A stretch of DNA of 32,098 nucleotides from Hydrurus foetidus (lineage: Eukaryota), in the NCBI GenBank assembly GCA_900617105.1, contig UYFQ01000864.1, forward strand, positions 1-32,098, given 5' to 3'. The notes beneath the pieces are model-generated. The model did no database searches. It was not told where the DNA came from and worked only from the letters and a program-made list of their open reading frames with translations. Shown piece after piece: positions 1 to 27,282 of the stretch. Each line of letters opens with the position of its first letter. The first letter of the stretch is position 1. The translations under genes and the position numbers were made by a program.

Positions 1-3000
1 CATTACCATAGACTATATTATCAATCAATGAAGCATCAGATGTAGCACAGGTAGAAGCACCAGAATCAAAATTATTTGATGAGGTGTTTGTTTTATAGCT
101 TTAAGATGAGAATTGGTACGAAGGACGTTCAGATTATAATAGTAATCGAACAAAGTCGTATCAGGAGTTTCAGGAGTAATTATATGATATAAATCTGGAG
201 GGACATGTACTACTTCTGGTGGAGGAATTTCTTCAATTATGGGTAGTACTATATTTTCAAATTCATTATCATTATTAATTTCATTATGAATTTCATTTTC
301 AAAGTTTATTTGCTGTTGAGCTTCATTAAGAAAATTGTCAACTTGAATGGCATCATGGGCTTCTACAGGTGGGTCATTGGGATCATCAACTGTTGAATCA
401 GTGTCATAATCCTCAAATTGACGCCTTACTGCAGCATTATTTTCTTCTGTAGCTGTGACAGCATTATACATATCGTCAGCTAGATTGCTGTCGGGATAGT
501 GACGATCTAGGGACATGTCAATCAAATTGTTGGTAAAACGTCACGAGGACCATCACGGTATCCTTTGAGTGGATAATAGGTTACTGGGTAAGGTTCAATG
601 TTCCAGAGGAAAGATCTGGATCTTGGTAGTACATGACTTCGAATGGATCTGTGGACTTGTAAGGGGAGGTATTAACTAAAGAAGGAATATCAGGAATATA
701 GGTAGTAGGAGTAGAGATAAGACGGATTTGTGTAGGAGAGGAGTGTGGAGTTTCATTCATTTTGGACACTTTTTCATTGTTCTGTTCATCAGAATTAATA
801 GATGTGTCTTGTTGTGTTTGGTCGACTGACTCTTTTCTTGCACTATTTACTGTATCATATTTCCTTTTTGTATATTTTGACATTGTTTCTATTAACATAT
901 TTCGATACCTTTGATTACGTTCTTGAGGAGTTTCTGGATTATTTTCGTCATCATCACTTATATTTTTGGACCATTTATTCATTACTTCTTGTTCATCGTC
1001 ACTTAACTCAACAGATTCAACGTCACTGTGGAAGTAATCGTTGAGGTCGTTATCACTCCGAAGTCGTGTTAACGTTTGACAATATGCATCATAGTCGATG
1101 ATACGACGTTCGCCAATAAGAGCAGGAGACTCATATACTGGATCAGGTCGATATACTGGACGAGATGGTGGAGGAATGGGGCTAGGGATGTATACACGTT
1201 GTGAAGGGGAGAGAACAGGACTAGGCTCACTTTCAGGACCGCTGTCACTACCACTACTTGTATCATCGTGTCTAAGATTATCATCATCATCGTAGTGTTG
1301 TAAACCACGTGGACTTGAGTGAGACCCGTGACGCATTTGATCTGATGGTTCGTTTGCTAAACTGGGAGAATCTGCGCGCGAGTAAATGACTCTAATTAGA
1401 GGTTCATTTCTAGGACGAAAGCTAGTACCATCTATAGGTCGTTCTTGAACGGATAGACATTCATCAACTTTTTTGTTAATGCGGAAGAGAGAGCTCGTTT
1501 GATGGGATCTTTGATGGGTTTAATTAATCGGGCAATAAGAAGAAAAGTTGCTTTGATTCCATTATAACAGAAGGAAGGTTCTGTTTGTGCTTCGATATCA
1601 TTTAAGAGGAAACGACGAAGAAAATCTTCCTTACGTGGTGTAGACTGATCATGATAGTAACCTAAATGTTGACCGGCAAATGCCATGAAGTCAAGGATAA
1701 CAGCATGTATTACTGTGTCAACGAACACCATGTTATGATTAACAGTGTTGTGATGAGCACTCTGCTCGAGTCGTCGAATGAGTTCAACATATTCACTCAC
1801 AGTAGTCATCTGAGACCAGAAATGTCCGATGCGAAGTGAAGTGAGATAATGCTCTCTGCTGGCAGCATAAGGGTTGAATGTCATAAAGTGCCGTGATGAG
1901 GCCACTTTTTCAGCAGAAGGAAGGATGACGATTGATTGCATTAATGTAGATGCAATACAATTCATTAAATGCATCCATGGGACTGTGCGATCACGAATGT
2001 CCTTACGTTTACGCGCCATAGGATTCGAATGCCATTGAAAGATGTCAGTATATTGATTATCTCTTTCCTGATTATCTTTGATAGTACGTGTACGTTTCCA
2101 CAAGAAATGGAATGGTGTAATAGATACCGAAGGATCAGTTCTATTATAGTGCGGAACATGTCTGTGAAAGACGTAATATTGTTCGGCTAGAAGTATCGAC
2201 GCAATAATTGCGCGAAGAGGGATGGTGCATGCGGAGTATTCATTATTTACATTTTGAAGTAAACATCTCTGATTGTTTTTTAAATCATTCTCTGTAATCT
2301 TATTTGAATAATCTTTATTATGACAAGAATTATCTAACCGTTGCGTCTTTAATATACGCTGATTATTCGGGTCGATTCGAATTCTCATTAGTGTATTCGC
2401 TTTCTCACCATGCGTTGTATATGCAGGCTGAGATGGATTGCCCCAACTGGAGAACGCTTGAACACGATGCTCAGTGGGTGTAGTGGCTTGATTTAGTACC
2501 TCTTCCAAGGTCTTTAATTTCTTAATTTGATTTTGAGAATATCCGCCAGCATATCTGCCATGAGCATTGCCAGACATAGGTCCCACAGAATCAAGTTGAA
2601 TTTGAGTTAACTTGAAACTTGGGTTAGGATATACGGGATTAGCCGGTTGGGTTTTGGCCGAGGATACCGGATAATTATCACGACGAGGAGGTGTAGGAGG
2701 TCGAAAGTCTTTTGGCATAATTTCATGCTTATATTGACATTCTTGAGCCGACTTAGGGCACACATCCATATTGAACTTAAAACAAAAGCCTCCGGCAGCT
2801 AGTCTCTTTTTGTCACTATTCCGACTGTCAACTTTTGGTGGTTGAGTCTTGGCATTCTTTTGACTGGCTGACTTATTGGGGTCATAATTGTTATTAGGTT
2901 TGTACTTGTTTTGAAGAGGAGGATTTGGAGGAGGAGCACCAGAATTTGAAAGAGTATTTTGATATAGGATATGAGGCTCGGTACTACTGGAAGTCATATT

Positions 3001-4562
3001 GGAGGTATCGAAACTTGCAACACGAGATGTGGTATTTTCGGATATGAGATCGTATGTACGGAGAAGTTTCTCTATAATCAGACTATAAGATTCATTACTG
3101 GACGCACTTGAAACGAAGCAGGATTGTATTTGGGATCTGGGATCATCTTTGAATTGATCTGATAGCCAAGATATTTTTCAACTTCAGTTAGGCGCCGCAT
3201 TTGGGCATGCTCGAGATTAGAGAACGCGGTTTCCCATCGAGAATATTCTGTCCGCATGGGGGAATGTATACTTACTTTATGATTTTCAAGAGCGTGTTTG
3301 GCGAACTTAATATCGATTTGCTTCTGACCGAACACAAATTGATGAATATCATGATATGCATTAATCCCATTGCGGGTGGATTCGCTTTGGATTGTAACAT
3401 GATGGTAAAGATTTTGATGAAACATGGCGAATACCAATGAATACAATCTCTCATTATCATACTTAAACTTAAAGGCATCGTCTTCTTTCAACATAACGTC
3501 CTCGAAATGAGTTGTGTTATTCGTAGAGAAGACAGATGAAGAATCCTCATCAGTTTGAGAAAGAACAGGTATGTTAATTACACGGCTTTCTGAGTATCCG
3601 TACTTATTTACTTCAAGATCTATGACAGGTTGCGGACGGTGTCCGGTCAATAGAGTAAGTAAATCAGCATTGGCTAATGTAGCATGTAATCCCCGTAATC
3701 GACGAAATTTGTCGGGGTATGCATATCTATCTTGTTCTTTTCACATTCACTTATGAAGACTTGCGCAACTTTGATGTACGTAGTCTGAGGGACTAATCTA
3801 TGCCGAAGTTTTGGCGTTCTTCTATTGTAACTTTCCTCAGATTCATACTCATGAATATTGGGAGAGAGAGGATGTCTAATATTTTCCGCACGTTCTTGCT
3901 GGGATCTATTAGATGTGTTGTTATTATTCGGACTGCGTTGTTGTTGAGAACTATTGTTATTATTCCAACTAGGACTTTCGCGCCGACTATAATTTTGGTT
4001 CCACGCATCAGAATCGCGTCGTTGTTGAGAAATATTGTTGTTGGAATAGCTGAATCGATCAATATTCATAGGGTTGGAAAAAATTTGCCAGAGTTTCCCC
4101 CCTCATTATTCATTGGATTGATTTTTCTTATGCTACTTTGTTCAACATTCTCGGACATATACGCGCTGGACATTCTCACAATGGGGTGATAGGGTTCGAG
4201 AGTGGGGCAGAGTGGGGCTGATCGCGCAACGGCAGATCCGCCCGTAGAGCAATGTCGACTGTCCCATAAGGGGCATCAACCTTCGCATCATTCTCTCTCT
4301 GCCTAAGAACTCGGGCAACTTCCCTATCTACAGCTGCCTGGAAGGCAGAGCTATCAATCACAACGTCAACGTTGGTTTCAAGCACCTGCTCTTCCAAGGC
4401 AGGATCCATATCGGACATATCGCTTTGCAGTGGAGGAGGGCCATCATCGATGATTTCCTCGCTGAAAGCGTCGTCGGCATCGGGTGAATCGCCACCAGCG
4501 CCAGATCTTGTCCGCATCATTTTGGTCGGGGAATCGGGTAACTTATCGGATGAAGTCTTCAA
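1..4562 (-). pseudogene. Copia A giant Gag-(unknown domain)-protease polyprotein, broken by frameshifts
   Basis: ORF pieces 4176..4562, 3674..4069, 3078..3650, 1432..2997, 581..1336 and 25..525 appear to be one frameshifted ORF; the joins at ~3170, ~1470 and ~70 are single-base shifts in A/T runs. Contains gag-like LLTLLTGHRPQP...LYSLV, C-x7-C-x6-C-x3-H (CFKFNMDVCPKSAQECQYKH, ~2784->2725) and, after the last shift, IIFDSGASTCATSD. Confidence 0.75.
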
Positions 4563-4566
4563 GCTT

Positions 4567-4578
4567 CAATCGCTACCA
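4567..4578 (-). other. Primer-binding site of Copia A (probably initiator tRNA-Met)
   Basis: TGGTAGCGATTG immediately follows the LTR end CTGACA on the - strand. TGGTAG start fits the 3' end of a eukaryotic tRNAi-Met; tRNA identity is inferred. Confidence 0.75.
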
Positions 4579-5086
4579 TGTCAGTTGATCAGGGACGATC
4601 AATGAGGTCGCAGGAGGCCAAGAGCACAAGCGACCAGGCGAAGAAGTTTGGGAGTTGAGTATCGAATATTCGTTAAGAATTAGAAACTAAACGCATGCGA
4701 ATTGAAAAGACGTTGCATGATGAACATCATTCTACCTGCCGCAAGTCAATAAGATCTCATTCGTCATCCATTTCAGATTTGAATTTGAACTCGTAGATTT
4801 AAGCCTACGTTGACGAGCGACGAGATATACTTCAAACCATACATCACACATGGAAAAGTTTTTATACTAACGCCCTGGTACTAACGCCATGACTCACACC
4901 ATGTATGTGACGAAGAATCTCAACTAAGTTTTAGCAGATTCCTGGGGAACCGAACCGATGACTCTCAAGTTTTGTCAGTGTGTGGATGGAGTATAAATAG
5001 CTGGTATGATAACCACTAAACCATCTAGCGCTAGATCGTTTAGTGGTTATCATACCAGCTATTTATACTCCATCCACACACTGACA
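4579..5086 (-). repeat. 5' LTR of Copia A (~508 bp)
   Basis: Inverted termini TGTCAG/CTGACA, adjacent PBS, TATAAAA on - strand near 4860-4866. Its last 137 bp recur inverted at 19336..19472. Confidence 0.75.
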
Positions 5087-5087
5087 A
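4972..5087. repeat. 116-bp near-perfect palindrome (58-bp arms, no loop, one mismatch)
   Basis: ttgtcagtgtgtggatggagtataaatagctggtatgataaccactaaacc-atctagcgctagat-cgtttagtggttatcataccagctatttatactccatccacacactgacaa; centre 5029/5030, single C:C mismatch at 5022/5037. Confidence 0.97.
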
Positions 5088-5576
5088 TTCCCTCAATGCT
5101 CGCTTCACCACCAAAGATGCACACACCTCCCGTCCGGTCTGTCCTGGATGCGCCCATGGCGCCATGCGTCAAGCATCCACAGACTATCGTCGCATCCACA
5201 GAGACACAACTACCCTCGTCGGCCAGCAGTTCTCCTTGGATGCCTATACCCACTCGACTCCATCATTCCGTAACTACCGTTACACTCACATCCTCACCGA
5301 CAATACTATCCTGTATATACAAAAGACCGGTCCGCCTCTGAACTCTGTGCCCGCATTGCAGCCTTCTTCGACCTAACCCCCCAATGGAACCACAATACCC
5401 CTGGGGTTGATCGCTTCATCCGGCATGACCCAGAGGCCAACTACCGATCTGAAGAATTTACTGCGCTTTGCGCCCGATACCGATACCGACTTGAGCACAC
5501 TGCACCTCGTGACAAACATGCCAACGGCATCGCTGAGCGAGCAGTCGGCATTGTAGCTCTCAAGACAAACGTTGCC
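5087..5576 (+). pseudogene. Copia B integrase (pre-integrase CxxC and DDE core), frameshifted and interrupted upstream by Copia A
   Basis: Across frames: CPGCAHGAMRQ, GQQFSLDAY (first Asp), HDPEANYRSEEF (second Asp), NGIAERAVG (Glu; in frame with ORF 5577). Confidence 0.8.
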
Positions 5577-7829
5577 ATGATAAGCCCTGTTCCGCATGTG
5601 CCAATGAAGTTCTGGGACCTTGCAATGTCCTATGCATGTGTTACTCATTCCTTTAACCTTAACAAGCGTATTGGTACTTCTCCGTATCACTTCACTTCTG
5701 GGCAACACGTGGACATCAGGATGCTTCGACCATTCTGGGCACCCTGCTATGTCAAGCACGCACCCAAAGATCAGAAAAGTAAAGTTGGGTCACCTCGTGC
5801 CTACCGTGCTCGGTTCGTTGGTTATAGTTTTACATCTATACTAGTCCCACAATATTTAGTATTAGAAATACTACCCAAGAACACCTACGGTACTGTTCGA
5901 GTCAGTAAGGATGTCATCTTCGACATGCACAACAACTTCAAGCATGACTCAGATGCACACTTCCCTACCGACGAGGCCTTCGCCCTCATCCCGTCCCTCT
6001 ACTATACTGATAATGATAATGACCCTATTGTGGTGCCTGAGCGAGTCGACCTACCCGGCCTCCCCTCACCTGCACCCCTTATCGACCCCGACTATATAAC
6101 CCCTGTCCCTGAGACAGAGCACTCAGTCAACGATGACATGATATACTGGTCCACCTACACCAGTTCTTCCACATGCTTCCCTGTTCACCTCTTCCGTGTC
6201 CTGCACTACAACATAGCAGTCCAAATCAAGGATCCCTACATCCCCAAAGACTTCTGGACCGCAATGCAGTACCCAGAGTGGGAACAGGCCATCAACACTG
6301 AGCGAACTAAGTTTGAAGTCAACAACTGCTTCAGGTCTGTACCCTTCACCGGCCAGCACCTCGTACCAATGATGTGGCTCTTCAGTATCAAGACTGACGG
6401 CACCAAGAAGGCCCGCCTCGTAGGTCGTGGTGATCTCATGATACCCTGGGTCGACTTCGACCCCTACGCAGTATACTGCGGTAATGTCAATGCATCTTCG
6501 ATCAAAATTGCACTCGTCATCGCCGCTACCTACAAATTATCCATGCGGGGAGGAGATTTAGTAGGCGCCTACTTAATCACACTCGCTAACCCCGACTTTC
6601 CCGTTCACATCAAGACACCTCAAGGTTACACCACACCTTTTGGCACATGCTTCCAAGCCATTGGCAACCTCTACGGTTTTCCACCAGCAGGCCAGAATTT
6701 CTCAAAGGAATTCGACAAATGTGTACGCGAATGTGGATACGAAAACACACCGTGGGACTTAAAGTTCTTCTTTAAGTGGGTCCAAGGTCAACCCCTGATA
6801 CTGATAGCACACTCAGACGACTTCAGATGGTTCGGACCACTTGCACTCATTAGCGAATGGGATCTCCTCATCGCTACATTCAACTCCCACAAGTATGAAG
6901 TCACCGACGCGACCTCCAAAGAGTTCGTCGGCATCCGCATTACATGCGATGAACACTTCAACTACTACATGGATCAGTCACGCATGATCACATCCATCGT
7001 ATCGGAGGCCAACCTTGCTGGCGCCGCCGATGAGCATCTACCATATCCACCTTCTGGTGAGAGTCTGTCCAAGGCGGACAACTCTACCGATCTCGATAGG
7101 CACATGTATAATAAGTATCCCTACCGACGGGTAGTTGGTCAACTTATGTACGGTATGGTACACACATTGATTACAATCATGTACGCTCTCAACATACTAT
7201 CCAGATATAGTAACAGTCCAGGTGCACGACACATCAAGTTCCTTAAGCACTTACTTCGATATGTCAAGTACGCCAAGATGGATAGACTGAAATTCACCAC
7301 ACACGACGGTCCCACCGACATCGCTACGATGACCAGTCTACTGCAGCTGAAGTTCCAATGCGACGCCGACCTCGCCGGTAACAAAGACAACCGTCACTCC
7401 CAGACCTCCTACATTGGCTACCTCGCCGACAATGTCATCTGCTGGAAGAGTACCGACCAAGGCAGCATCTCATCATCAACTGCGGAATCCGAAATCAAGG
7501 CAGTTAATCACGCACTTAAATCCGATGTCATTCCCCTCCGGGGCATACTAAACCACATGGGATGGACACAAGCTCCTACAGTCATCGAAGAAGACAATTC
7601 TGCTTGTGTTGATGCTTCAAATCATACACACATGACCAAGAACCTTCGTCACATTGACCTGAGCGAAAACTACTTTAAGGACAAAGTCGCCGATGGTACC
7701 TGTGTCATTGTTAAAATCCCTTCGGGCGAAAACAACTCAGACATAGGTACGAAAAGAGTTCCACTACCACTTTTCGAATACCTAACGCACAGGCTCGTTG
7801 ACAAGTCTTTACGAACTAATATTAAATAA
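5577..7829 (+). CDS. pol: Copia B Pol: integrase C-terminus, reverse transcriptase (RVT_2 type), RNase H
   Basis: FWDLAMSYA, RARFVGY, VSKDVIF, KKARLVGRG, DLVGAYL, NLYGFPPAG, IAHSDDF, PYRRVVGQLMY, CDADLAG, SSTAESE, EEDNSAC, RHIDL, SDIGTK. Confidence 0.95.
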   Translation: MISPVPHVPMKFWDLAMSYACVTHSFNLNKRIGTSPYHFTSGQHVDIRMLRPFWAPCYVKHAPKDQKSKVGSPRAYRARFVGYSFTSILVPQYLVLEILPKNTYGTVRVSKDVIFDMHNNFKHDSDAHFPTDEAFALIPSLYYTDNDNDPIVVPERVDLPGLPSPAPLIDPDYITPVPETEHSVNDDMIYWSTYTSSSTCFPVHLFRVLHYNIAVQIKDPYIPKDFWTAMQYPEWEQAINTERTKFEVNNCFRSVPFTGQHLVPMMWLFSIKTDGTKKARLVGRGDLMIPWVDFDPYAVYCGNVNASSIKIALVIAATYKLSMRGGDLVGAYLITLANPDFPVHIKTPQGYTTPFGTCFQAIGNLYGFPPAGQNFSKEFDKCVRECGYENTPWDLKFFFKWVQGQPLILIAHSDDFRWFGPLALISEWDLLIATFNSHKYEVTDATSKEFVGIRITCDEHFNYYMDQSRMITSIVSEANLAGAADEHLPYPPSGESLSKADNSTDLDRHMYNKYPYRRVVGQLMYGMVHTLITIMYALNILSRYSNSPGARHIKFLKHLLRYVKYAKMDRLKFTTHDGPTDIATMTSLLQLKFQCDADLAGNKDNRHSQTSYIGYLADNVICWKSTDQGSISSSTAESEIKAVNHALKSDVIPLRGILNHMGWTQAPTVIEEDNSACVDASNHTHMTKNLRHIDLSENYFKDKVADGTCVIVKIPSGENNSDIGTKRVPLPLFEYLTHRLVDKSLRTNIK

Positions 7830-8036: not shown

Positions 8037-8544
8037 TGTCAGTCCAGCATATTCATGCATGATCTGTTAGCATAGTTTCATCTGTAGATTAGCATTCACA
8101 TGTCACAAGTAGTGTAGCGCTTCCTCACCCAAAACACCGCCATACACTGTTGTGTACATACGCTCATCGTTCTTCTAGCGATATCCCCCTTCGGGGCCAT
8201 CACCAAGCATCCGGTTTTTCACCACCAAGCATCCGGATTTCCACCAGGTATCCGGTTTCCACCAAGCATCCGATTTCATGAGCAGCGAGGGTTCCGCCCA
8301 TTGCTCAATCGCCAACTTGAATATTCGCTGAATATATTTCCACTTCGGCGATCACCATTTCATGCACAATGGATGCTTTGCTTTGCTTCTTTGATGGTTG
8401 TCTTCTCTGATATCATCGCCAGTTGTTTTACTACTTGATCGTTGTAAGTAAACACGTCTTCCGAGACCACTTCCATCAGCCAGTCTTTCCTTTGCGCTTC
8501 CGCAGCCAACAGGTAGCTCGCTTCACTCCACAGTCTGACTCACA
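8037..8544 (+). repeat. 3' LTR of Copia B (right end inferred)
   Basis: Starts TGTCAGTC after the PPT and ends GACTCACA (7/8 inverted match). No second copy in the window. Confidence 0.6.
8201..8277 (+). repeat. Four ~18-22 bp tandem motifs CACCAAGCATCCGGTTT inside LTR B
   Basis: caccaagcatccggttttt / caccaagcatccggattt / caccaggtatccggttt / caccaagcatccgattt. Confidence 0.85.
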
Positions 8545-10448
8545 TGTACATCAGTAAGTACAGGTATACTATCAATTGTAGCAGGTGGGACTGGTGTACT
8601 ATTATCCAGGGTATTACAAATTTTCGGTTCTGCACTAGTGACCGGTTCAATGTGAGTGACGGGTGTGGTTACACTATCCGGTCGTAATGCTACTGCACTA
8701 GTTTCGACTAGTGCAGTAGTATTACTGTCTATTTCATTGCTGTTAGGCTTAGCTTTACCTTTTGGTTGACGGGTAGTGTAATCGCATTTGGAGTTATCTG
8801 AGTTCGATTCCCATGTGTGTTCTCTCTTGTCTCCATCGGCGTTTGGAAGTGTACGTTTTTTATTGACGTCTGTAGGAGTCTCTATGTTACACTCATCAAT
8901 ATCACGCGTTCGCGGTGGAGTTAGTTTCTGAAGTCTAGATCGTTCAGTTTTATGGCTGTCATCGGTACTCGTGATAGATGATGATAGTGATTTGTTGTCA
9001 TCTTGATCATTATCTGAGGCATTAAGAATGGTCTCAGGAGAACTAAAATCTAATTCCATATTCGATGGTGATTTGTTTTGTGGACGTTGCGCAGTGTTCA
9101 TTGCTCTTATGATACGCATATCTTCTTTACGCTGTATATGTAGATACCTACTGTCAAATTGAGGTGGTTCTACGAGGTTTGGTGGTTTGTTATCATGTTT
9201 TTCAACAGGATCTTCATTAACCTCTCTATCTTTCGGGTGCACAAAACGAGTACCAAAATTTATGTTCTCATATTTAGTATTAAACATTGGTCTATGTTTT
9301 GGTACAGCAACGTCTTTAGGTGAAAATTCTTCTAAGTTTTCATGCTTCAGTATTCTATCTGCTTCTAGTGTCATTGGAGTTGATGGTGATACTTTAATTT
9401 CATCAACAAGAGATCTACCAATACGAGCGATGAGCTGAAAGTGCTCTTTGATACCATGGCATGTGAATATCGGATCAACTATATCATATATTTGAAGTGT
9501 AAGTACGTGTCGTAGTACTGTTATCTTTATAGGATCGTTGTCTCGATAGAAGCCGAGGTATTGGGCGGTGAATGCCATGAAGTCATAAACGACTGAGCGT
9601 ATTACCGTCTCAGCATATAGTGTGTTATGTAGTACTGAATTGTATGATGTTACACTGTCTATAATATTCAGTACACTAACATACTCTTCGAGACTATGGA
9701 CCTAGGACCAGTATGCTCCAGGCTCATGTGCTGGTAGGGGTGTTTCAAATTTTCCATTAATTAGATATGAATTATATAAATTATATTTGAGAGCATCCGC
9801 CTCTACCTTCTTCCATGGCATGACTACGCATGCTTGTAGCATTGACGCGCCCATACTATATAATAGTCTTAACCATTGTGTATATGGTTTTGTAATATCC
9901 GGACGTCTGTCGTCATGTCTATTAACATGCCACCCAAGTAAAGATGTATAGTAATTTGGTATTTCTTCACCGTCTTTAATAGATGTTGTTATTTTATGTA
10001 TAAAAGATCCAGGCAATATAGAAGTTGTTTGATCGTATCTACCATATTCAGGCATACGTGTATTATATTGGTAATTTTCGGCATGCAAGAAAGCTGCGTT
10101 AACACCCCGTAGAGGAATATTTGGTACTTCATAATTGTTTGCAATATTATTACTCAGAAAACGATGATGCAATTTACGTGTCTCTTCATGTAAGCCTAAG
10201 TGGTCATACATAATTCTTTTATCAGCAATATCTTAATTTTGTCTTGCTGTACGAAGAATTCTTTGTGAGTCTTCGTCGATGCAGACGCGCATGAGTACTT
10301 GGCGTTTTTCTTGAGCTGACTCGAATGGCGCTTTTGATACATTGGACCAGTTAGAGAATCTTCCCTGTTTACCACTAGTATTAGTGTTACGTTGGAGTGA
10401 CATTAGTTTGGTAATAGCCCTTTTTTGATTATTAGAATATTGTCCTAC
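8545..10448 (-). pseudogene. Copia C polyprotein continuation (second copy of the unknown domain plus low-complexity linker)
   Basis: ORFs 9702..10211 and 8523..9578 share a frame separated by TAG; homologous to A ORF 1432..2997. Confidence 0.75.
9357..10448 (+). repeat. 1.09-kb direct repeat, copy 1 (copy 2 at 14366..15449)
   Basis: Near-identical sequence; about 8 substitutions and an 8-bp deletion in copy 2 (offset changes from 5009 to 5001). Confidence 0.97.
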
Positions 10449-10656
10449 TGTGGTCGTACCGGGTATACCGGGCTTACGGGCCGTACCGTACCTCGTCATT
10501 ATCCACCCGATCCTTCCGCCTACAGTACGCATACAGCCCTACCAAGACTAGCTAGCTAGCTGCAGCCTACTCGTAGAAGTTAACTAGCTTCTAGCCTAGC
10601 CTGTAACCTAAGCACAACCCGCTCTTCTGCCCTTCTCCTTCTCCATCAGGACTACA
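10449..10656 (+). repeat. 5' LTR of Gypsy D (~208 bp; right end inferred)
   Basis: TGTGGTC...GACTACA imperfect inverted termini; related sequence at 19202..19335. Confidence 0.7.
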
Positions 10657-11215
10657 ATAGCGCTATTCGTCCGCCCTTTCTTCTACTACCTCTCAGTCCA
10701 TCTACTTGTCCAGAACTTTTAGATAAGACTTCCTGAGCCATCGCTCGTCCGCCACTGGCCGACTTCTCTTGCAGCTTCGAGCTCAGAGAACTGTAGTTTA
10801 AGTTAGAGAAAGTCAGCATACCTGCTTTCTTGGAATCCCTAAGTTTGGGCTCTTCCATTCTTTAAGTTTCCGGTCGAAGTCGAAAGATCCTTCCCGAGAT
10901 TCATTAAAGATCTGCTCTGACGGTCGATTGAATCACGGATTCATCACCGCCGACATAAGATTAGTCAAGAGACGTCTTCTTGTCGCTGAAAAGCAGCAGC
11001 GTATACCTTAAAAGGTATCCACTTTTTCTACCACTCAAAATTTGGCTCTTAAGCCATTGGACTTTTCAGTTCAAGAGTTGGTTAGAATCCTCTAACGCGT
11101 TGTTACTGACGTTACAGTACCCGTTAGCGAACAAGGCAAACCCCTTGCAAATTTTTTTTGACAAGAGGGGATTGATCTCTGCTGTGTTTAAGCGAGATAC
11201 ATATCTAGTAACGAT

Positions 11216-14200
11216 ATGTCAGCCGCACCTCCATCTCCACCACCTCCTGATGAGGAGGAGATTGCTCGTCTCGCAGCGTTGGCTGCCCTCAATGAGACTA
11301 TTCCAACCAACAGTTCATTGTTTGGTAACAGCTCGCTGACGATGCAACTCCAGAGTGAGGTATTCGTGCTCAGACACAACTTCATTGATGAAGCTGATGC
11401 CATTGAGTTCTACGAACAGGCTCAACGCAATCCCAACATGAAGTTGACGGACTGTATGCAGAAGCAGGCTATCGAACTACTGAACTTCAAAATCTTAGTC
11501 GATCCTGAATTCAACATCATTGATCGTCGACAACGTCATGATTGGTTCACCATACTATCGGTGACTCAGGTAGCCACTCTAGTAGTGAAGTACTTCTGCC
11601 CAAACGGTTTGGGGGAGTGTACTTTGGCAGAGAGTTTTAGCCAAATTCCCTTCCACTACCAGATCGCTAACCACGATCATGAGAATGCCACTTTCATTCG
11701 CTACAACGAATTAGTGAGCAACTATGAAAGGCTGACTATGACTCAGCATGCTGAGCTTATTCAGATCTTGGAGAAGCGCCTAGCTAAGGGTAGTCAAATT
11801 CAACAAGACTACCTGAGAGCGAAAGCAGCTGACACCTCACCACCTAACACGTGGACGTGGTTAAAGACTATGCTACGCATTGGTCAGGTTCTGGCCGAGG
11901 CTAGGTCAATGACGAACCTCATCAAGAGCTACGGCAACCCGGAGGTAGTGTACTCGTTCCCTTCATCGGCTATTCCGCCTGAGGTTGGTAAAAAAGAGAC
12001 AAGCAGAGCAAGTGTTAAGGCACCCTCACCTACTCCATCCGGGACGTCTAAGTCACTTACAGCGACTGTGCGTACAACAGGCTCGTACATTCCGACTCAG
12101 CACGGACTCGCTGTCCGTGCGTCGACGGAAGTGCCGCTCGTGCGGGTCTAAGTCGCACATGTTGATTGATTGCCCCATTCTGTATTACTCCGACTCCAAT
12201 ACAGACCATTCGGCTGATTGGGAGGATTCTACATTGGGTATGGCTTGGGCAGCGGTAGGGTTCACAGAATGGCAACAACATCTCGTACTCCCCGGATACG
12301 AAGATCGCGTTCTGTTACTCCCTAAGGGTTCTAAACCCTACTTGATGTCTAACGACAACAAGCGCCCCAAAAACAGCCATGGTGGCGGTAACAACCCCAA
12401 TGCCTCTGGTGGTTCAGATCGTTCCAACCAGGGACAAGGGGGGTATAACCAAAACCAGGGGAACCACGGTAACCAGGGAGGTGGTTACCATGGCAACCAT
12501 GGAGGGGGTAGAGGTAAGCAGAGGGGAGGATACAACCCCAATGCAAACCAAAACCAGGGTCGTGGATCCGGTGGCAGGGGAAACAAATACAACCCCCCAC
12601 AGGGAAACAACCCTCCCTCCTCCTCCAGTTCAGGTCAGGATCAAGGTAAGAACCTTTATTCTGATGACGTGGCTGCTGTCTTTGACAATGATTCCCATAA
12701 TCTGATGGATAGTCATGTTGAAGAACAGCCATATGTAACTATTCGTGAAGAATTTTTGCATGATCCATCTGTCCTTCCTTCTCATCACCTCAACGTAACT
12801 GTTATCGTGCAGGATAAGGAAAGGACTGGCCCAGCAAGCGAGCTGCGAGCCGTTGGAAGAGCCGTGTTGGACACCGCGAATTACTCGGAGGATTTTATTT
12901 CTTTTACTATGTTAGAAAAATTGAATGCCACTCCGCTCCTACAGCTATCACTGTTTGTAGCGGCCTCGATGGTCAATCTTATTTAAATAACGAAATTTGC
13001 GATTTAAAAATTCTTTTTCATTCTTACGATGGCGAATGCCAGAGCATCAGCTTACCCATGAGGGTGAATAGGAAAACCGAAATTGAAATTTTGTTTAGCC
13101 GTAAGACGGTAAATAAATATGATTTTTGGTCTTTAACTCCGTTTGCTTTCGGCATATCGCCAGAACTTAGCGCGAAAAACAAAAAGAAAAGCGATGCGCG
13201 CAAATGCGAATTCGGTAAGAAGGAAGCTTTGTTGAAACTTGATCCCATGTATCAACATAAGTGTACGCGTCAAATGATAGCGTTGGGTGCCGAACTAGAT
13301 ACAGCTAAAGTCGAGTGTATCACGCCTCATTATGACAAGCTGAAATATCCAGGCGGTAAACCTACCTCTAAAAAGAGGGTAACATATGGAGTACAAGAGT
13401 ACTCATAGAAGAAGAGCGTTTTGCTTGGTCAATCTTCTTCGAAGAGCAACGTCTCCTGTGTCCATTCAATGTCGACATGTAACGATACCCAAAAGGATAT
13501 TGAGGGAGTCGCGACCCAAAATTCCTGTGGTGATGTAAGATGTGAGCGACTGAATAGTGTCACTACTATTCTCGTAAAACGTACGGGTGATACACCGCAC
13601 CTAGGTGGCGACTAGATTCCCACCCTTACACATACCTTTGGGGATTCTGATACCCCCGACTATGTCACTGAGCCTTTATGGCCCAGTGGTGTCGCACTCT
13701 CAGTTGACGAGATTGACGATGGCAAGATAGACACGTTCGCACCCTTCTTAGCGGAGAAGCCTAGTCAAGATGACTTGCCCAAGGGGCCAGAGGATTTCCT
13801 CAACCAGATTACCTTTGAGGGAGATGAAAGCTTTCAAAGGAAGCTCCGAGAGCTCTGTTCTGAATATTCAGACATCTTTAGTGATCAGTTAGCTGAGAAA
13901 CCAGCATCACTTAGACCTTTTGAGATTAACATCCCACTTGAGTTGTGGGGAAAAGACGAAAACCGTACGCCGGTACGTCCCCAGTCATCGACTAAGGAGG
14001 TTGCTCTTAAGGAGAATCTCGATGAGATGCTTGCGTCGGGGGTTATAGAGCGGTCAGATGCTGCTTATTACAGTCATCCTGTAATCGTAACTAAGTCACC
14101 CGGTAAATTTCGAACCTGCATCGATTACCGGCCACTTAATAAGTGCCTGACTCCTGCCTCATTTCCCCTACCGAATATCAAACATCTTTTTGAGAGGATC

Positions 14201-14365
14201 GGTAATAAAAAACCGGATATTTTTGGTGTGATGGATTTGACCGCGAGTTACCATCAAGCACCGTTACACCCCACATCGCATTTTCACAGCATTCATATGC
14301 TTTGCGGGGGTTTTTCAGTTTACGAGACTGCCCTTTGGTCCGTGTCGTGCCCCCTCTTACTTTCA
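11216..14365 (+). pseudogene. Gypsy D gag-pol (Gag, zinc knuckle, Gly/Asn/Gln-rich tract, protease, partial RT), frameshifted
   Basis: CRSCGSKSHMLIDC; AVLDTANYSEDFI; VCSGLD motif shared with Gypsy E; RT motifs in 13775..14365. Confidence 0.85.
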
Positions 14366-15449
14366 ATCTGCCTCTAGTGTCATTGGAGTTGATGGTGATA
14401 CTTTAATTTCATCAACAAGAGATCTACTAATACGAGCGATGAGCTGAAAGTGCTCTTTGATACCATGGCATGTGAATATCGGATCAACTATATCATCTAT
14501 TTGATACGTATCGTAGTACTGTTATCTTTATAGGATCGTTGTCTCGATAGAAGCCGAGGTATTGGGCGGTGAATGCCATGAAGTCATAAACGACTGAGCG
14601 TATTACCGTCTCAGCATATAGTGTGTTATGTAGTACTGAATTGTATGATGTTACACTGTCTATAATATTCAGTACACTAACATACTCTTCGAGACTATGG
14701 ACCTAGGACCAGTATGCTCCAGGCTCATGTGCTGGTAGGGGTGTTTCAAATTTTCCATTAATTAGATATGGATTATATAAATTATATTTGAGAGCATCCG
14801 CCTCTACCTTCTTCCATGGCATGACTACGCATGCTTGTAGCATTGACGCGCCCATACTATATAATAGTCTTAACCATTGTGTATATGGTTTTGTAATATC
14901 CGGACGTCTGTCGTCATGTCTATTAACATGCCACCCAAGTAAAGATGTATAGTAATTTGGTATTTCTTCACCGTCTTTAATAGATGTTGTTATTTTATGT
15001 ATAAAAGATCCAGGCAATATAGAAGTTGTTTGATCGTATCTACCATATTCAGGCATACGTGTATTATATTGGTAATTTTCTGTATGCAAGAAAGCTGCGT
15101 TAACACCCCGTAGAGGAATATTTGGTACTTCATAATTGTTTGCAATATTATTACTCAGAAAACGATGATGCAATTTACGTGTCTCTTCATGTAAGCCTAA
15201 GTGGTCATACATAATTCTTTTATCAGCAATATCTTAATTTTGTCTTGCTGTACGAAGAATTCTTTGTGAGTCTTCGTCGATGCAGACGCGCATGAGTACT
15301 TGGCGTTTTTCTTGAGCTGACTCGAATGGCGCTTCTGATACATTGGACCAGTTAGAGAATCTTCCCTGTTTACCACTAGTATTAGTGTTACGTTGGAGTG
15401 ACATTAGTTTGGTAATAGCCCTTTTTTGATTATTAGAATATTGTCCTAC
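14366..15449 (+). repeat. 1.09-kb direct repeat, copy 2
   Basis: Matches 9357..10448. Confidence 0.97.
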
Positions 15450-17599
15450 ATTCAAACCTTGACCTGCCTTAGGGCCGATGTGGTCAAGTATATTTCTAGG
15501 TAAGTCAATATTAAAAGGTATTTTGGGATTTTGAGGCTGAGTGTGTTTAACATTAGGCGTGTTATCTTTTCTCGCTCTATTATTATCATACCCCTTATCA
15601 CCTTTTGGCTGCATAATATGAGGCCATTTGCATGTAGGGTTTTTACATTGATTACGTTGATATGCGTAACAGTACTGTGCTGTTTTCTCTTGCGGCGATT
15701 CGCCTGCTTTCTTATCAGCTATGTATTTAGGAGTTGGGTCTACTGTTTTCGCCTGTGATGACGAACTAGTACCGTATAAGCTTGCTAGCTGTGCATTATC
15801 CCATGATGGGTCTGGGGGCTGGTATGCAGTCCTGACCGCTGCTAACTGTACTGTTGCAAGGTGTGGCGGGAGTGCGTCTGCGACCCAGAGTATATTTGCC
15901 ATTATATCCGAGTCGATTATTCATCGAGGCTGCGAATGATGACACGATTAGCGGTCTACCATCATCTGAAAAGTGTTTTGCTAAAAAGGCGAGTTTTGTT
16001 TCACTAGAAATCTTTTTGTTATTTGCATATGAAAGATTATTGAACAAATTTCCCATCTAATGAATTCACTACGTACTGTCTTATTTTGATCGACTTTAAA
16101 TAGTGTGATATTATTTTCAGCAATTTGGATATCTTGCTGACGTTGGCCAAACACATGACTAATGATTTGATTGAATGATATAACACCATCTCTTTCTTGA
16201 TGTGCCTCGTTACTGACATAGTGACGGCAATCTTTATGGAAAATTGTATCTAACAGTGAGTATAGTCGATCAACATCGTATGTATAATAATATATGTCGT
16301 CTTCTTCTAGAATAATATCTTTTGTATTTGATATAGTGAAGGATAAGTCTACTCCTGCTACTACTGGTGGTTTATATGGGAGTACTTTCTGTTTCCTATA
16401 TCCGTGCTTATTCTTATCTTGAATGAGAATTGGGCGAGTGCGGTGTCCTTGCACGAGTGTGAGGAGTCCGACAGTATTTAGCAGGGAGTGAATTTGCCGG
16501 AGACGGTAAAATTTGTCAGTAGAGTTAGGATGGATTTGAGAGTTGCTGAACATTTGAATTGCAGCAGCCGAAGTATCTAACCATTTTGATCTTTTTACTC
16601 GTCTATTGCGTTTACGTTTCTTCTTCTTGTATTCCGTTTCGGAGGATGAAGAACTATGGTCCTTATAGTAAATTTTATGGTTATAGCTAGAGGAATCAGA
16701 GCTGGATGACGATAAGTCATCTGGTGGATCCGTAGATTTCTTTTTCTTTTTAGGGATGCAACGTGCATTGCCCTTGCTCTTTTGTGAGGATTCGGACGGG
16801 TCGTCCGATGAGTCGGATGTGTGAGAGATATCCGCGATATGAGTCGGATATCCTTTCTTGTGAGAGATTTTCCGCGAGGAACTCTTCTTCTTCTTATTAT
16901 TATTATTATTGGAATTACTATCTACCTTCCCATTATTATCGTTATTTCCTATGCTCCCCGACACAAGGTCAGCTTCATTCCTAGGGCTATCTACATTGTC
17001 GTTATTTGATGTTTTATTGGAGGACTTCCGTGAATATTGCCGAGACGATTTGTCTGACTTCTTCGTAGACTTGTGGCTTGCGTCGTGTAATTCATTTTCG
17101 CGTAATTTTAATCTATTTTTGCGGCGTCTATCCGATTGAGAGGTCAGTTCATTGTCCTCTCCGTCAGAAGAGCTATCGTCGTCATTTTCCCGACGCATAG
17201 AAAAAAATTTGCGAGGGTTTTCCCTGTAACCATCATTGGATAATTTTTTTCTAGGCCACCCGTGGACGTTAGATCATTTGTATTTCTACTCCTACGTGGT
17301 TGATGGGTGGGATTTGTGGCGCTGCTCCGATCTAGGGGGTTACAAGATGAGGACTGATCGCTATAAGGCTGATCCGTCCTTGCTGCGATGTCACCTGTCG
17401 CATAGACGGCAGGGACCTTCGCAGCATCATCTCTGCTGCCCATCAATCGAAGCAGTGCCCTATCTAAGGCGTTTACTTCGATGGAAGCAACGACTGATTC
17501 AACTTCTGGAGCAGCGGCGATGGGCTCCTGCGGGTTCGTCGGGCTGTTGTCGCTGTTCTCGTTGTCGCTGTTTGTCTGAGAACGAGTCTTCATGGACAT
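14366..17599 (-). pseudogene. Copia C Gag + CCCH finger + unknown domain (frameshifts, in-frame stops at 15234-15236 and 14703-14705)
   Basis: ORF pieces 17144..17599, 15981..17198, 15796..16056, 15234..15902, 14703..15212; finger CYAYQRNQCKNPTCKWPH (C-x7-C-x4-C-x3-H). Confidence 0.75.
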
Positions 17600-17646
17600 T
17601 AAGTCGATGGAATAAGCTTTGGCGGCTGGTCTTTAATAATCTTGGT

Positions 17647-17658
17647 CAATCACTACCA
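17647..17658 (-). other. Primer-binding site of Copia C
   Basis: TGGTAGTGATTG abutting the LTR end; 11/12 identical to the PBS of A. Confidence 0.75.
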
Positions 17659-18080
17659 TGTCAGTTGACAGCAAGCGTGTAAGCGCGGTACCGTGGTCAA
17701 GAGCAAATATGATTTGTGAGGACCCACGATGAAATATCGTGCAACGGGAAAAGAGTTTAATTATGAGTTAGAAACTTGGTTGGCGACACAAAAGGTAACG
17801 AATGGTGGCAAGCAATCTACCTGACAAACGTCTAGAAGTTACTCTGACGTTGCAGTTCCCGAAATGTCAGATCGCAGGAGATAAATCTCTGCATATGATA
17901 AATGAGGTAGTAGTTCATACACTTATACATACTGGAGGGATGGTAGGTGATGAGTCTCGTACTAAATGTTACCCGGGTCTGCTAGGGCTATGTTTGAGGT
18001 ACTATAACAATGGCATAACATACGATATGAAAGGCATTGAGGAAGCGGCTTGACTGTATGCTATTGTGTGTTCCTTAACA
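17659..18080 (-). repeat. 5' LTR of Copia C (~422 bp; outer end inferred)
   Basis: - strand TGTTAAGG...TCAACTGACA; shares short motifs (caagagca, ttagaaact, tctacctg) in the same order as LTR A. Confidence 0.6.
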
Positions 18081-18559
18081 TGCATTTAAACACTAAAATG
18101 TGATTTATCTATGATTCTAATTGGTGATTAACTTAACGGTATATACGGCTGTAACATGCACTTATGGCAGTCGTAAGCCGACAATCACCGCCACTATCAT
18201 CTTCAGCTCGACTCGAAAATTCGCCATGGCGACTTTTGGTGCCAAAGACTGTGAGGCTGACCGGCATGTGACAAGGAAAGGACAAACTATTAGGTTCTAT
18301 TTAATTCATTACAAGGAATACAATTCTATGATGAAATTGAGAGCTCAGCAGCAGATTAATCCAGCACAAGGATCCGTCAAAGAAACGGAGGAGAGCAGCA
18401 GACAAAGACACAATCGATCATATTGTCAACGTCGAAACAAGGCGCATTGTGAAGAAGCTAATGACATTCCGGTAAAGGTCACGAGAATTTAGGATGCCGT
18501 CGAGAATATCATTGTCAGCGCCATTAAGTTGAAGGGCGCCTTCGAGACTATCAGCTTTT

Positions 18560-18985
18560 GTGAGCCAGAGCCAATCAAAGAGGACCATGTGCGATATTTC
18601 CAATGTTACTTGTGTTAGCAATTTCTTGAATGCCTTGAAAGTTGTTTTTCCTGGTTGCACTGAAGTAAAGATTATGATCATGAAATCTCTTGCTGGCGAT
18701 GCGTCCCAACCAACCCACACCGACTATAACACAAAATTCATTACTAATCGAGTGCATGACCTGAAGTGCTTTCATTACTCTGCAATCATTGACATCGAAG
18801 ATGGCACACACCTGCTCACAACGACAGATAAAGTTCGAGTCGATATTTCCAACAACTCGTTGATAATTTTCCGCGGTGATTTCCCTCACGCCGGCGGAGG
18901 ATATGCCAAAAAGAATACACGGATCTTCACATCAATGTCATGTCCACTAGCACCTCTCGACTCGTCTGTCTACATTGTAATATAA
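18560..18985 (+). CDS. 2-oxoglutarate/Fe(II) dioxygenase-like domain (5' end unclear, possibly degenerate)
   Basis: QPTHTDY (HxD) ... IIFRGDFPHAGGGY (distal His) ... NTRIF (Arg): typical double-stranded beta-helix 2OG-Fe(II) signature. Confidence 0.7.
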   Translation: MSQSQSKRTMCDISNVTCVSNFLNALKVVFPGCTEVKIMIMKSLAGDASQPTHTDYNTKFITNRVHDLKCFHYSAIIDIEDGTHLLTTTDKVRVDISNNSLIIFRGDFPHAGGGYAKKNTRIFTSMSCPLAPLDSSVYIVI

Positions 18986-19201
18986 ATATTTTTCGATATC
19001 GATTCGATTCTCATTCATCTTCATTTTTCATGGAGCCGAGTAAAAGTTTCAGGGCAACGAAGTTCAGTTAATCTGAGTTAATTATTTCGAGTTCAATGCA
19101 GCTAACATTCTTTCAGTCTGACGCATACTCATTTCATGCTGCATTTTGCGGGCTACTATGTCATCTCCCAAGTGTAGACGCCGGGCCTCTCTGTTCTCCT
19201 C

Positions 19202-19472
19202 TGTGGTCGGATCGGCTATACCGGGCCTACGGGCCATACCGGACCTAGTCCCGATCCATCCGATCCTGCCGCCTACTGTACATATACATCTCTAGCACAG
19301 CTGCTAGCTAGCTCCAGCCTTCTCATAGAAGTTTACAACGTCTTTTCAATTCGCATGTGTTTAGTTTCTAATTCTTAACGAATATTCGATACTCAACTCC
19401 CAAACTTCTTCGCCTGGTTGCTTGTGCTCTTGGCCTCCTGCGACCTCATTGATCGTCCCTGATCAACTGACA
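19202..19472 (+). repeat. Chimeric LTR remnant: 5' ~134 bp of a Gypsy D-family LTR fused to the 3' 137 bp of a Copia A-family LTR
   Basis: 19202..19335 aligns with 10449..~10582; 19336..19472 is the reverse complement of 4579..4715 with 2 mismatches. Confidence 0.9.
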
Positions 19473-19678: not shown

Positions 19679-19687
19679 AAGCTGTTT

Positions 19688-20626
19688 TTGTATCATAACT
19701 TATTTAAGTTATCTAACGTTTTGCTCCTTTTTAAATCCTCAACAGGAGGTGAAGATGAAGTGTTTGTCATTATTGACAATACTTCATCATTAAAAGGCTT
19801 TCAGTGGGCAAACATGTCATGTTCTTACGATGCTGTATTCACGACATTGTGGATTGTCTATTCTACTGGTACTGAAAAGTTAAGAGCTGCATTTGATGAT
19901 ACACTCCCATTCATGGGAGAGATGTTTACACAAATGACAAACAACACTACATCAGCAGCAGAGGCTAATAATAAGCTTTGAGATTACTACTATAAATCAA
20001 GTAGGAAGAAGTGTTTCGCTAGAGGAGTTTACCAATCAGTACCGGAAGTTATTGGACATCTATTATCACAGTGTATCATACCTATTCACGATGAAGGTAT
20101 GCTTGATCTCTTTGATTTCAAAAATCCATGTCACAAAAAGTGCCCACATGATTCCTGCGAATTGATATCAGATTTAGAATCAGATCATTGCATATTCTTT
20201 AATAATGATATCGATTACACTTTAAGCCTAAGCTATATGATACAAGAACATTTTAGGTTGGAACCAGTAAATTATTTGTGTGTTGAATGCCGGCTCAAAA
20301 TGAGCCTTACTTATGAATTGGTGGGGTGTCCCCAGATTGCATGCATCTGTTTTACGGGTAAAGATGTGGAAAGTAATTTTGAAAGAGTAATACATATTGG
20401 GGTAGTAGAGTACAAGCTACTTTCTGTGGTGTATCTAGTGGGTAGTAATCATTTCATTTGCAGATTTTGTTTAGACAATGTAGCGTATGAGTATGATGGA
20501 ATTGTTAGATTTGGGGCATTTAGGGAAGTCACATATGATCCACCTTTCCCTGGTACTACGTATGATGCCAACTCCGACAAAGTAATGGAAGTTCAAGCTG
20601 TGTATTACACGAGAAGTCAACCATAA
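19688..20626 (+). pseudogene. USP/peptidase C19-like cysteine protease domain with one in-frame TGA (19979-19981)
   Basis: Cys box GFQWANMSCSYDA, zinc-ribbon-like CPHDSC...CVEC, His box GSNHFICRF...YEYDG; ORFs 19688 and 20099 are in the same frame. Confidence 0.65.
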
Positions 20627-21546
20627 CTTGCACTCATCACTTGAAGCAATACATTCAATTAAGCATCATACTTTCATATATAATGCAGCGTATTAATCTT
20701 CTCGTACTAATTACATATACTGTATGTATACTAATCATTTCGACTATAATTGTCACATCTCGTACATACGCCTTAAACGATAATATACACACACTTGCCG
20801 TATTTCGCCCATTTTATCCTCTGATATAACTAACATAACTCAATACCACTTTTGATATTTGTTTGGTCAGAGAGTATCAGTAAGTGTTAACATCATAGTT
20901 GAACAATGTTTACAGAGAAATGGGCCTCGAAAGATTGCAAGCGAAATTCAATGAACGGTTATTTGAGACGCCGTAAAAATGAAAATATAGAACTGGTATG
21001 ATGCCCTCACCTGCTGTTTACCAGCTACACTTACAAAGCGCTCGTAATTCGGCGTAACTGTTACACTAAACTGCGCTATATAAGTGGATCGAATCATTGG
21101 AGCAGCACTTGGACTGAAAGCGATAAGGTAGGAGAAAAATACGAGAAGAAAGAGACTAAAAAAACGAAAGTGTGGAAGTAAGCAATTTCCGCCAGCCTTC
21201 GACCGTTATATGATCAATTAAAGAAACGATATTCATTACACGTTCATGTTGTTTTATAAAAAAAATAAGACAGAGAGAGAATGCAAGAGTGCAATTGGTC
21301 TATGATGGAGGCTACACGAAAGGTAAAAAAAGTAAGTAAATTTGTAAGATGCCCTAACCTACTGTTCCTCTACATCCGATAAACTGTTGAAACACTGGGA
21401 ATCTGGCGTTGTCGGTGAAATCAACGGCAGTTAACCACAGCGGATGTTGGAGTGGCACGTGGACGAGAAGTTGGTACAACATTAGAAAAGACGTTGATGC
21501 AGCAGCGCAGCGCCATGACTAGACTTCGGTGCAGCGTTATGACTAG

Positions 21547-21810
21547 TGTAGCCTCACTGTATCTGTACTGCATGTACGGATACACTGTGACTGTATACTA
21601 TACCTGTACTGTAGATTCTAGAACGGACCCAAAGTCCGGTACAGTTTTCTTTTCTTTTCGTTTCCACGCGAGTACACATCACTGTAGATACTACTGCTTG
21701 TTTCTCGCTGTAAACTATAAGAATACTCTTCCACCTCCCCCATCTTCGTTTTTCGCCTCCGTCCTCGTCCATCGTCCTCGTCCACCGTCCTTTGGTCACC
21801 AACGACCATA
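21547..21810 (+). repeat. 5' LTR of Gypsy E
   Basis: TGTAGCC...GACCATA; matches 27019..27282. Confidence 0.95.
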
Positions 21811-21885
21811 ATATCGATATTTGGTTCTACGACCAAAATTCTGTCCTTTTATTCCTCCATCTTTTCTCGAGAAAATTTTCAGAGC

Positions 21886-26811: not shown

Positions 26812-26992
26812 TTTCTTCACTCGAAACGTTATTCATGAAGAATTTACCTCCTATTTTTTTATATTCTTTTTTTGGAGGAATTTAGTCAGTAAGAGTCTGA
26901 CATCATCGTTTTCGAAGTTTCTCATTTTTTTCAAAATGTGTTTTGTTTCGTCTTTCTTTCCCACTCTCATACAAATATTAGTAGAGTTCATT

Positions 26993-27015
26993 GGAAAAGA
27001 AAAGGGAAGAAGGGG
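26993..27015 (+). other. Polypurine tract of Gypsy E
   Basis: GGAAAAGAAAAGGGAAGAAGGGG, 3 nt before the 3' LTR. Confidence 0.9.
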
Positions 27016-27018
27016 TAG

Positions 27019-27282
27019 TGTAGCCTCACTGTATCTGTACTGCATGTACGGATACACTGTGACTGTATACTATACCTGTACTGTAGATTCTAGAACGGAC
27101 CCAAAGTCCGGTACAGTTTTCTTTTCTTTTCGTTTCCACGCGAGTACACATCACTGTAGATACTACTGCTTGTTTCTCGCTGTAAACTATAAGAATACTC
27201 TTCCACCTCCCCCATCTTCGTTTTTCGCCTCCGTCCTCGTCCATCGTCCTCGTCCACCGTCCTTTGGTCACCAACGACCATA
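27019..27282 (+). repeat. 3' LTR of Gypsy E
   Basis: Matches 21547..21810; preceded by the PPT. Confidence 0.95.

Follow-up and report, generated by a model that had tools for sequence, protein, structure and literature searches.

A conserved Gag domain of unmatched fold between a CCCH zinc finger and the protease in Ty1/Copia retrotransposons of a Hydrurus foetidus contig

Introduction

Ordinary Copia retrotransposons are compact. As given in the part of PMC2829016 available to us, their Gag is ~330 amino acids (aa) long, and the Gag of Sireviruses reaches 660 aa and continues past the zinc finger. In the same part of that source, the Sirevirus extension binds Light Chain 8 proteins and is suggested to aid particle assembly or movement. 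Extra open reading frames (ORFs) of plant retrotransposons with long terminal repeats (LTRs) are reported as lineage-restricted and mostly lacking a known domain, 21.4% of them with CDD similarity, in the available sections of the REXdb survey (PMC6317226). Herein, a stretch of 32,098 nucleotides (nt) from Hydrurus foetidus (contig UYFQ01000864.1), called the window, was analyzed. Element A, a Copia element on the minus strand at the start of the window, and element C, a broken relative on the same strand, both carry a conserved region downstream of the Gag zinc finger. The folded core of this region is called domain X.

The extra domains of LTR elements that we found described are recognisable host captures (chromodomains, archaeal-type RNase H) or separate variable ORFs. 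Domain X contrasts with these: it is in frame, without homologues outside these elements in our searches, of unmatched fold, and retained across deeply split families. We conclude that X is a real, selected and lineage-defining Gag domain of unmatched fold in an element of known type, Ty1/Copia.

Results

Domain X is shared by elements A and C

The first-pass annotation of this DNA had placed about 4.5 kb (~1,500 codons) between the first gag ORF of element A and the protease motif DSGAS. The distance from the start codon at 4520 to DSGAS at 67-53 (minus strand) was measured as 4453 nt, ~1484 codons, in agreement with that estimate. The reading frame is interrupted by at least 6 frame changes, and small insertions or deletions distinguish the contigs of other copies from element A near several of the breaks. 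In the contigs of two sequencing runs, a joint at 3069/2324 steps back 746 nt, which suggests that some copies carry an internal duplication across the CCCH finger. Of pol, the protease start alone lies within the window in copy A. The parts of element A are listed below, with P0026 and P0027 as intact relatives.

3674..4520, minus strand: N-terminal region of Gag, a short conserved helix and then low-complexity sequence, frame-broken (tblastn to P0026 aa 22-243 and P0027 aa 1-90; A vs C, E 4e-08)
3000..3719, minus strand: putative capsid region of Gag, assigned by position only (36% to C, E 2e-33; 40% to P0026 aa 240-436)
2725..2784, minus strand: single CCCH zinc finger at the nucleocapsid position, replacing the CCHC knuckle (pattern match)
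2311..2595, minus strand: motif module at the N-terminal end of the conserved region (G..GYS..Q..L, FSSW.N, LMRIRI), from alignments, low model confidence
1483..2310, minus strand: domain X core, for which a mostly helical fold with a single beta-hairpin is predicted; Ser at 1815 and Asp-Phe at 1692-1687 are invariant
70..1480, minus strand: acidic low-complexity linker, its length varying over the lineage (charge, core-to-protease distances)
11..70, minus strand: start of the aspartic protease, DSGAS at 67-53 (80% to P0027 aa 1407-1426)

When the A ORF at 3177-1432 was compared with element C by tblastn, 31% identity over 452 aa (E 4e-59) was found with the first piece of C (C1), and 33% over 379 aa (E 2e-56) with the second piece (C2). 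Despite this protein similarity, no nucleotide match between A and C was found by blastn. The A/C core reached a local score of 403, whereas 1000 shuffles averaged 34 and never exceeded 63. For the downstream linkers the score was 65, a value attained by 39/1000 shuffles, which agrees with the earlier description of the flanking linkers as lacking evident similarity. All the quoted A/C motif pairs that were searched were found in their places (A 2223-1654, and C), with one correction: C2 has YNSY where YNPY had been quoted. A search placed the long C motif in C2, and the alignment shows it in C1; EYV is visible in the alignment only.

The conserved region begins upstream of the segment noted at first, at ~2595, and comprises ~370 aa: a ~95-aa motif module and the ~250-aa folded core. 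A conserved domain of ~250-300 aa between finger and protease had been claimed; the placement and the ~250-aa core stand, and the full conserved region is longer, at ~370 aa. In the motif module, the predicted local distance difference test score (pLDDT) was <50 over the portion that was folded (2388-2311).

Element C lies in two pieces.

14362..17665, minus strand: first piece (C1), with LTR end and primer binding site, Gag, CCCH finger and domain X (~15480-14378), with stops (56% to P0027 aa 120-1017)
8523..10448, minus strand: second piece (C2), a 1.1-kb duplicate of X and then linker, cut off before the protease (53% to P0027 aa 698-1306)

C1 and C2 show 98.4% identity over 1096 bp (C2 vs 14362-15449) and share the same two stops; they therefore represent one family, not two witnesses. 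The C segments at ~15130->14400 and ~10130->9400, both listed at first, are a single 98% duplicate and count once. TAA/TAG recoding was considered for the two stops and was set aside, as an 851-aa open frame in the standard code gave no reason for it. No protease of element C was found in the window, where C2 stops near 8550. Between the two pieces, which overlap by 1.1 kb, lies a decayed Gypsy-like element (10449-14361, plus strand) with Gag-like ORFs and protease- and reverse transcriptase (RT)-like pieces.

Domain X holds its position in intact relatives

Word-based searches for relatives returned 1, 11 and 2 proteins, the last 2 being P0026 and P0027. Both are intact single-ORF polyproteins with near-identical cluster mates. 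P0026 (2465 aa) shows 57% identity to the domain; P0027 (2551 aa) shows 35% and is the intact kin of C (56%). When 1.84 billion representatives were scanned with HMMER, 56 proteins matched at E<=0.001, among them a third full-length X-bearing element, P0058 (2009 aa), and deep homologues of X at 15-25% identity. Intact ORFs of 2009-2551 aa occur in three clusters. The order in the full-length relatives is Gag, CCCH finger, domain X, protease, integrase, RT and RNase H.

The core profile was matched by 74/97 stored proteins. All 15 proteins in which a finger was matched (7 clusters) have the CCCH finger 162-231 aa upstream of X, and all 10 in which the protease motif was seen (6 clusters) have it 56-354 aa downstream of the X core; the remaining core-profile proteins are fragments or have no finger or protease pattern match. 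The proposed location of X between finger and protease therefore holds wherever both are visible. In P0058 the protease begins at residue 907, in P0026/P0027 at 1319-1407. The "giant Gag" proposed as a trait of the lineage survives in part: X is constant, but the linker that gives the length is optional, and the distance to the protease and the protease start vary accordingly. The linker net charge is -29 in P0026 and -16 in P0027.

No homologue of X outside these elements was found among the 1.84 billion representatives, and a host-gene domain beside X was seen in 0/22 matches scanned. The 56 matches include 38 flanks of at least 60 aa, of which 32 resemble other family members and 6 match nothing, in a check that is partly circular because the comparison set contained family fragments. 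The relatives' records bear no informative names. The locus searches gave L001, 14 residues at a contig end that look spurious, and L002, at 30% and E 1e-3; two further locus searches gave no matches. The stretch also occurs in freshwater, sediment and glacier metagenome runs and in a run of one coded organism, with no RNA data set among the runs listed.

In two subfamilies the protein ends soon after X. P0078 and four further proteins of its cluster (882-887 aa), as well as P0092 (885 aa), stop ~70 aa past X and have no protease motif; P0092 and P0078 are 68% identical in the capsid and 55% in X. Since the ORF ends there in both subfamilies, X probably belongs to Gag.

Finger, capsid and Copia assignment

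The CCCH finger pattern is present in A, C, P0026 and P0027. The CCHC pattern was absent from P0026, P0027, P0033 and P0037, with a single CCCH finger in its place. Pfam zf-CCCH was over the cut-off in P0074 and P0078, and the finger profile matches MBNL/TTP-type fingers. By these profiles, the finger is a true CCCH type.

Pfam RVT_2 was over the cut-off in P0026, P0027 and P0058 (E 1.7e-17, 8.1e-17 and 8.9e-18). In these three proteins, the protease motif is followed by SH3 and then by RVT_2; rve was weak (E 0.19) and appeared in P0027 only. This is the Copia order as described in the available sections of PMC6317226. Judged by domain order and RT type, the elements are Ty1/Copia (Pseudoviridae). 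A further member of the lineage stands next to element A.

5077..7829, plus strand: element B, a 5'-truncated Copia element that belongs to this lineage and has integrase, SH3, RT (motif HSDD) and RNase H; it stands head-to-head with A's LTR

Element B matched Pfam RVT_2 and SH3_retrovirus and is 55-56% identical to P0026/P0027; its RT-RNase H region is 67-69% identical to the three full-length X-bearing elements. The RT catalytic motif of Copia is usually YVDD. It is HSDD in element B, P0026, P0027 and P0058, which may be a lineage marker, and no literature on a copia RT with HSDD was found by full-text search.

Selection and divergence

Variants were taken from the contigs of eight runs, as the best 40 of 358 rows for positions 500-3800 and the best 40 of 88 for positions 1480-2640. 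In the conserved region (1480-2640), 40/46 listed distinct variants were synonymous, with 0 stops, where 21-27% synonymous was expected. The corresponding omega is ~0.04-0.06 for the listed variants. When 18 variants at 2191-2269, mostly from one contig, were left out, 25/28 were synonymous. These data bear out the proposal that X is kept by purifying selection, one of the two points on which the first-pass annotation could have been overturned. In the capsid region, 8/11 listed variants were synonymous. The acidic linker (620-1460, minus strand) is also rich in synonymous changes (5/6 listed near-copy variants), yet it is unalignable between families. Two variants next to a break were left out of the capsid and linker counts.

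Identity between A and C2 by codon position was 0.50/0.60/0.35 over 263 codons. Between P0026 and P0027, identity is 41% in X, 35% in the capsid and 77% in RT-RNase H; in deep pairs it is 15-25% in X and 19-34% in the capsid. The divergence rate of X is Gag-like, not enzyme-like. Across 8 rows, identity in X covaries with identity in the capsid (rho 0.51, Mantel p 0.007). The X and capsid trees both recover P0027+C1 and P0078+P0092, with no resolution of all else. Covariation and trees fit vertical inheritance of X with Gag, and no more.

Predicted fold of domain X

An AlphaFold model of X was built from a 52-row alignment, with a pLDDT of 83.7 and a predicted template modelling score (pTM) of 0.84, and the five models agree. 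The folded domain that had been proposed is supported by this confident model. It is globular and consists of one helix, a beta-hairpin (70-88) and, at the C-terminus, a bundle of helices; the longest helices have 24 residues. An earlier model from 20 rows (pLDDT 46) was too weak and was discarded; its best Z of 6.7 spanned the C-terminal bundle alone.

No Pfam family was found for X of A, and the 52 members gave scattered weak matches only. No PDB sequence match was found for X (best E 0.92) or for the whole P0058. With the good model, Foldseek gave nothing at E<=0.001 in PDB or BFVD. The best hit of the wide VIA structure search had a Z of 5.3 (root-mean-square deviation 4.7, 149 aligned; NOT1 SH domain) and was tied with unrelated helical scaffolds. 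The predicted fold of X is thus unmatched in the PDB and BFVD searches, which is not proof of a new fold. A match to an ordinary Copia Gag/Pol subdomain, which the first-pass annotation had named as one observation that would overturn its proposal, was sought in Pfam, PDB and the structure searches, and none was found.

Among 17 deep rows, 19 columns are conserved at >=80%, of which 11 are Gly, Pro, Trp, Phe, Ile, Leu, Met or Tyr and 0 are His or Cys. Ser166 is invariant in 40/40 rows and in 17/17 deep rows; Asp207 is kept in 16/17, Arg232 in 15/16 and Asp268 in 12/12.

Ends of element A and rest of the window

The upstream end of element A contains two further features.

4579..5086, minus strand: likely 5' LTR of A (TGTCAGT...ACTGACA), from its terminal motifs, start inferred, 3' LTR beyond the window
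4571..4578, minus strand: primer-binding-site-like TGGTAGCG, immediately following A's LTR end

The TGGTAGCG stretch is presumably a match to tRNA-iMet; no tRNA genes were found in the window. The same LTR-end/TGGTAG junction is present in element C at 17665-17653. TG...CA LTR ends followed by a primer binding site are therefore seen at the 5' LTR end in both A and C; A's 3' LTR and target-site duplication fall outside the window. A near-perfect hairpin with 58-bp arms (inverted repeat 4972-5087, fold z -9.75) forms the first 116 nt of A's likely LTR. It sits exactly at the junction of A and element B, and may be a genuine LTR feature or a foldback artefact. The last 137 nt of A's LTR are found again at 19336-19472. 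There, at 19194-19472, this copy adjoins a 145-nt piece that is 81% like 10440-10584, and the two are nested element ends.

The rest of the window holds other repeats and ORFs. A near-complete Gypsy element (21544-27285, plus strand) has 270-bp repeats that are 99.6% identical, and Pfam RVT_1, RNase H and integrase matches. Its C-terminus is chromodomain-like by eye, and its repeats, as found, are without TG...CA ends. An ~830-bp tandem duplication (96%) lies at 27470-29105, and a 173-bp tandem repeat of 3.5 copies (99%) at 29728-30332. Broken ORFs at 30447-32098 (minus strand) gave no Pfam match for the two ORFs scanned; we take them to resemble Crypton-type tyrosine-recombinase transposon proteins. 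Two plus-strand features without a Pfam match were read by eye: a split ORF at 19679-20626, whose motifs resemble the Cys and His boxes of papain/USP-type proteases, and a 150-aa ORF at 18533-18985 with HxD...H spacing like that of a 2-oxoglutarate-Fe(II) oxygenase.

Discussion

Proposed role of domain X

Our leading, still tentative, reading is that X may be a non-enzymatic, Gag-encoded, particle-borne adaptor. It is suggested by the Gag-side position, the Gag-like rate, the mostly structural conservation and the variable charge of X. X would be made at Gag levels, as suggested by the ORFs that stop soon after X in two subfamilies, and would be packaged with Gag in the virus-like particle. 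It would probably be released by the element's own protease, and could then bind a host factor or the Gag-RNA complex and help assembly, trafficking or delivery of complementary DNA to the nucleus. In plant Copia, a short spliced RNA provides surplus Gag, according to the available part of PMC5580714. The single-ORF members here would need a comparable route to excess Gag.

Certain points weigh against this adaptor role. The invariant Ser166 and near-invariant Asp207, Arg232 and Asp268 form a pattern that an enzyme would show too. The putative capsid region had no Pfam or PDB sequence match. The variant tables hold best-supported rows only and are contig-derived. Kin share identities, so the covariation of capsid and X reflects shared descent only, and the trees resolve two cherries each. 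The Gag-only ORFs are seen as protein only, and at that level a pol in a shifted frame, a non-autonomous element and a lesion that they share look the same.

It is possible but rather unlikely that X and the neighbouring CCCH finger jointly bind nucleic acid, with X serving as a chaperone or packaging module for RNA or suppressing small-RNA or chromatin silencing. RNA binding and silencing suppression were among the functions suggested at first; the analysis supports the fold and its conservation, not these functions. An RNA-binding-type finger precedes X in 15/15 proteins, and Trp, Tyr and Arg are conserved in X. The X core has a net charge of -2 to +8 across eight homologues; the values of +8 in A and +5 in P0026 would suit such binding, but the -2 to +2 in five of the eight does not favour it. 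Counter-defence proteins often diverge fast, and X does outpace capsid divergence in the deep pairs; among near copies, however, omega is ~0.05 and no rapid change is visible.

The bolder proposal, that X is a retrotransposon-born, new-fold counter-defence factor or enzyme carried by the Gag particle and marking an undescribed Copia lineage, is judged unlikely. If it were true, that lineage would be defined by a 2000-2550-aa polyprotein, a CCCH nucleocapsid and an HSDD RT, and X would have been kept since before the families reached ~20% identity.

It is distinctly unlikely that X is an enzyme of undescribed fold, such as a hydrolase or a nucleic-acid-modifying enzyme, using the invariant Ser and the Asp/Arg residues. 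The residue counts above and the compact, confident model would agree with catalysis, but X has no conserved His or Cys, and its single conserved Glu is covered by 8 rows only. X also diverges far faster than the known enzymes of the element, and a Gag-side position implies bulk amounts.

We regard as improbable that X is a known domain eroded past recognition, either a P-element/THAP9-type transposase piece or a second capsid-like module. TNP-like clusters came up in the Atlas feature search with a score of 0.90, the families being on 10-36% of members. This lead stayed under the guide values (recognition value 1315, guide 2300; 155-159 shared features, guide 170) and was not reproduced with the deep homologue P0084 (best 0.81), and the TNP-like family was not among the first 25 of the 32 Pfam families listed for the 52 members. 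As a duplicated capsid or internal repeat, X was rejected, its profile matching the element's own capsid with a probability of 0.6%.

An explanation of the similarity as neutral baggage or as an artefact of assembly, which the broken copies A and C and the duplicate pieces of C might suggest, has a negligible chance and is already refuted by the synonymous excess and the 56-protein family, barring a strong codon-position bias in the variant tables, with the intact ORFs in three clusters and the A/C protein similarity seen without a blastn match also speaking against it.

Being small and apparently soluble, domain X lends itself to structure and pull-down studies. It marks a Copia lineage that seems to be uncatalogued, and it may offer a lead on retrotransposon-host engagement in little-studied freshwater eukaryotes.

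Comparison with known systems

Retroviral p6 and p12 are Gag-encoded, protease-released host-factor adaptors that are short and largely unstructured. The likeness of X to them is a functional analogy only and no homology is claimed, as X is a predicted folded domain of ~250 aa. Unlike the REXdb extra ORFs, which are separate and heterogeneous, X lies in frame inside Gag(-Pol) and keeps a fixed position down to 15-25% identity. The available text of an Ectocarpus transposable-element survey contains no mention of CCCH and no such Copia domain (PMC12477816). In full-text literature searches, with Repbase/GyDB entries, subscription papers and supplements outside their scope, no title or abstract opening on this domain was found.

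Similar to the CoDi-A and CoDi-I elements of diatoms, these are Copia elements of microbial eukaryotes with an acquired extra domain (available parts of PMC2774666, PMC2806351 and PMC5348765). In the same sources, unlike here, the extra domain of CoDi-A/CoDi-I is a chromodomain at the integrase C-terminus, and some CoDi families have tandem CCHC fingers. No chromodomain was matched by Pfam in P0026 and P0027 (E up to 1) or in P0058 (E up to 0.1).

Because the X-bearing elements lack the CCHC finger, they are not placed in Sirevirus. Sireviruses are elements of plants with a CCHC knuckle and a predicted coiled-coil extension; here, a CCCH finger and a predicted globular domain are found, with the protease at 907-1407. 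A TQT-like motif, sought in the sequence as a sign of Light Chain 8 binding, occurs once in the P0026 linker and not in P0027. In proposed working, Sireviruses are nevertheless the nearest described system: like them, the X-bearing elements are Copia elements with an enlarged Gag that extends beyond the zinc finger.

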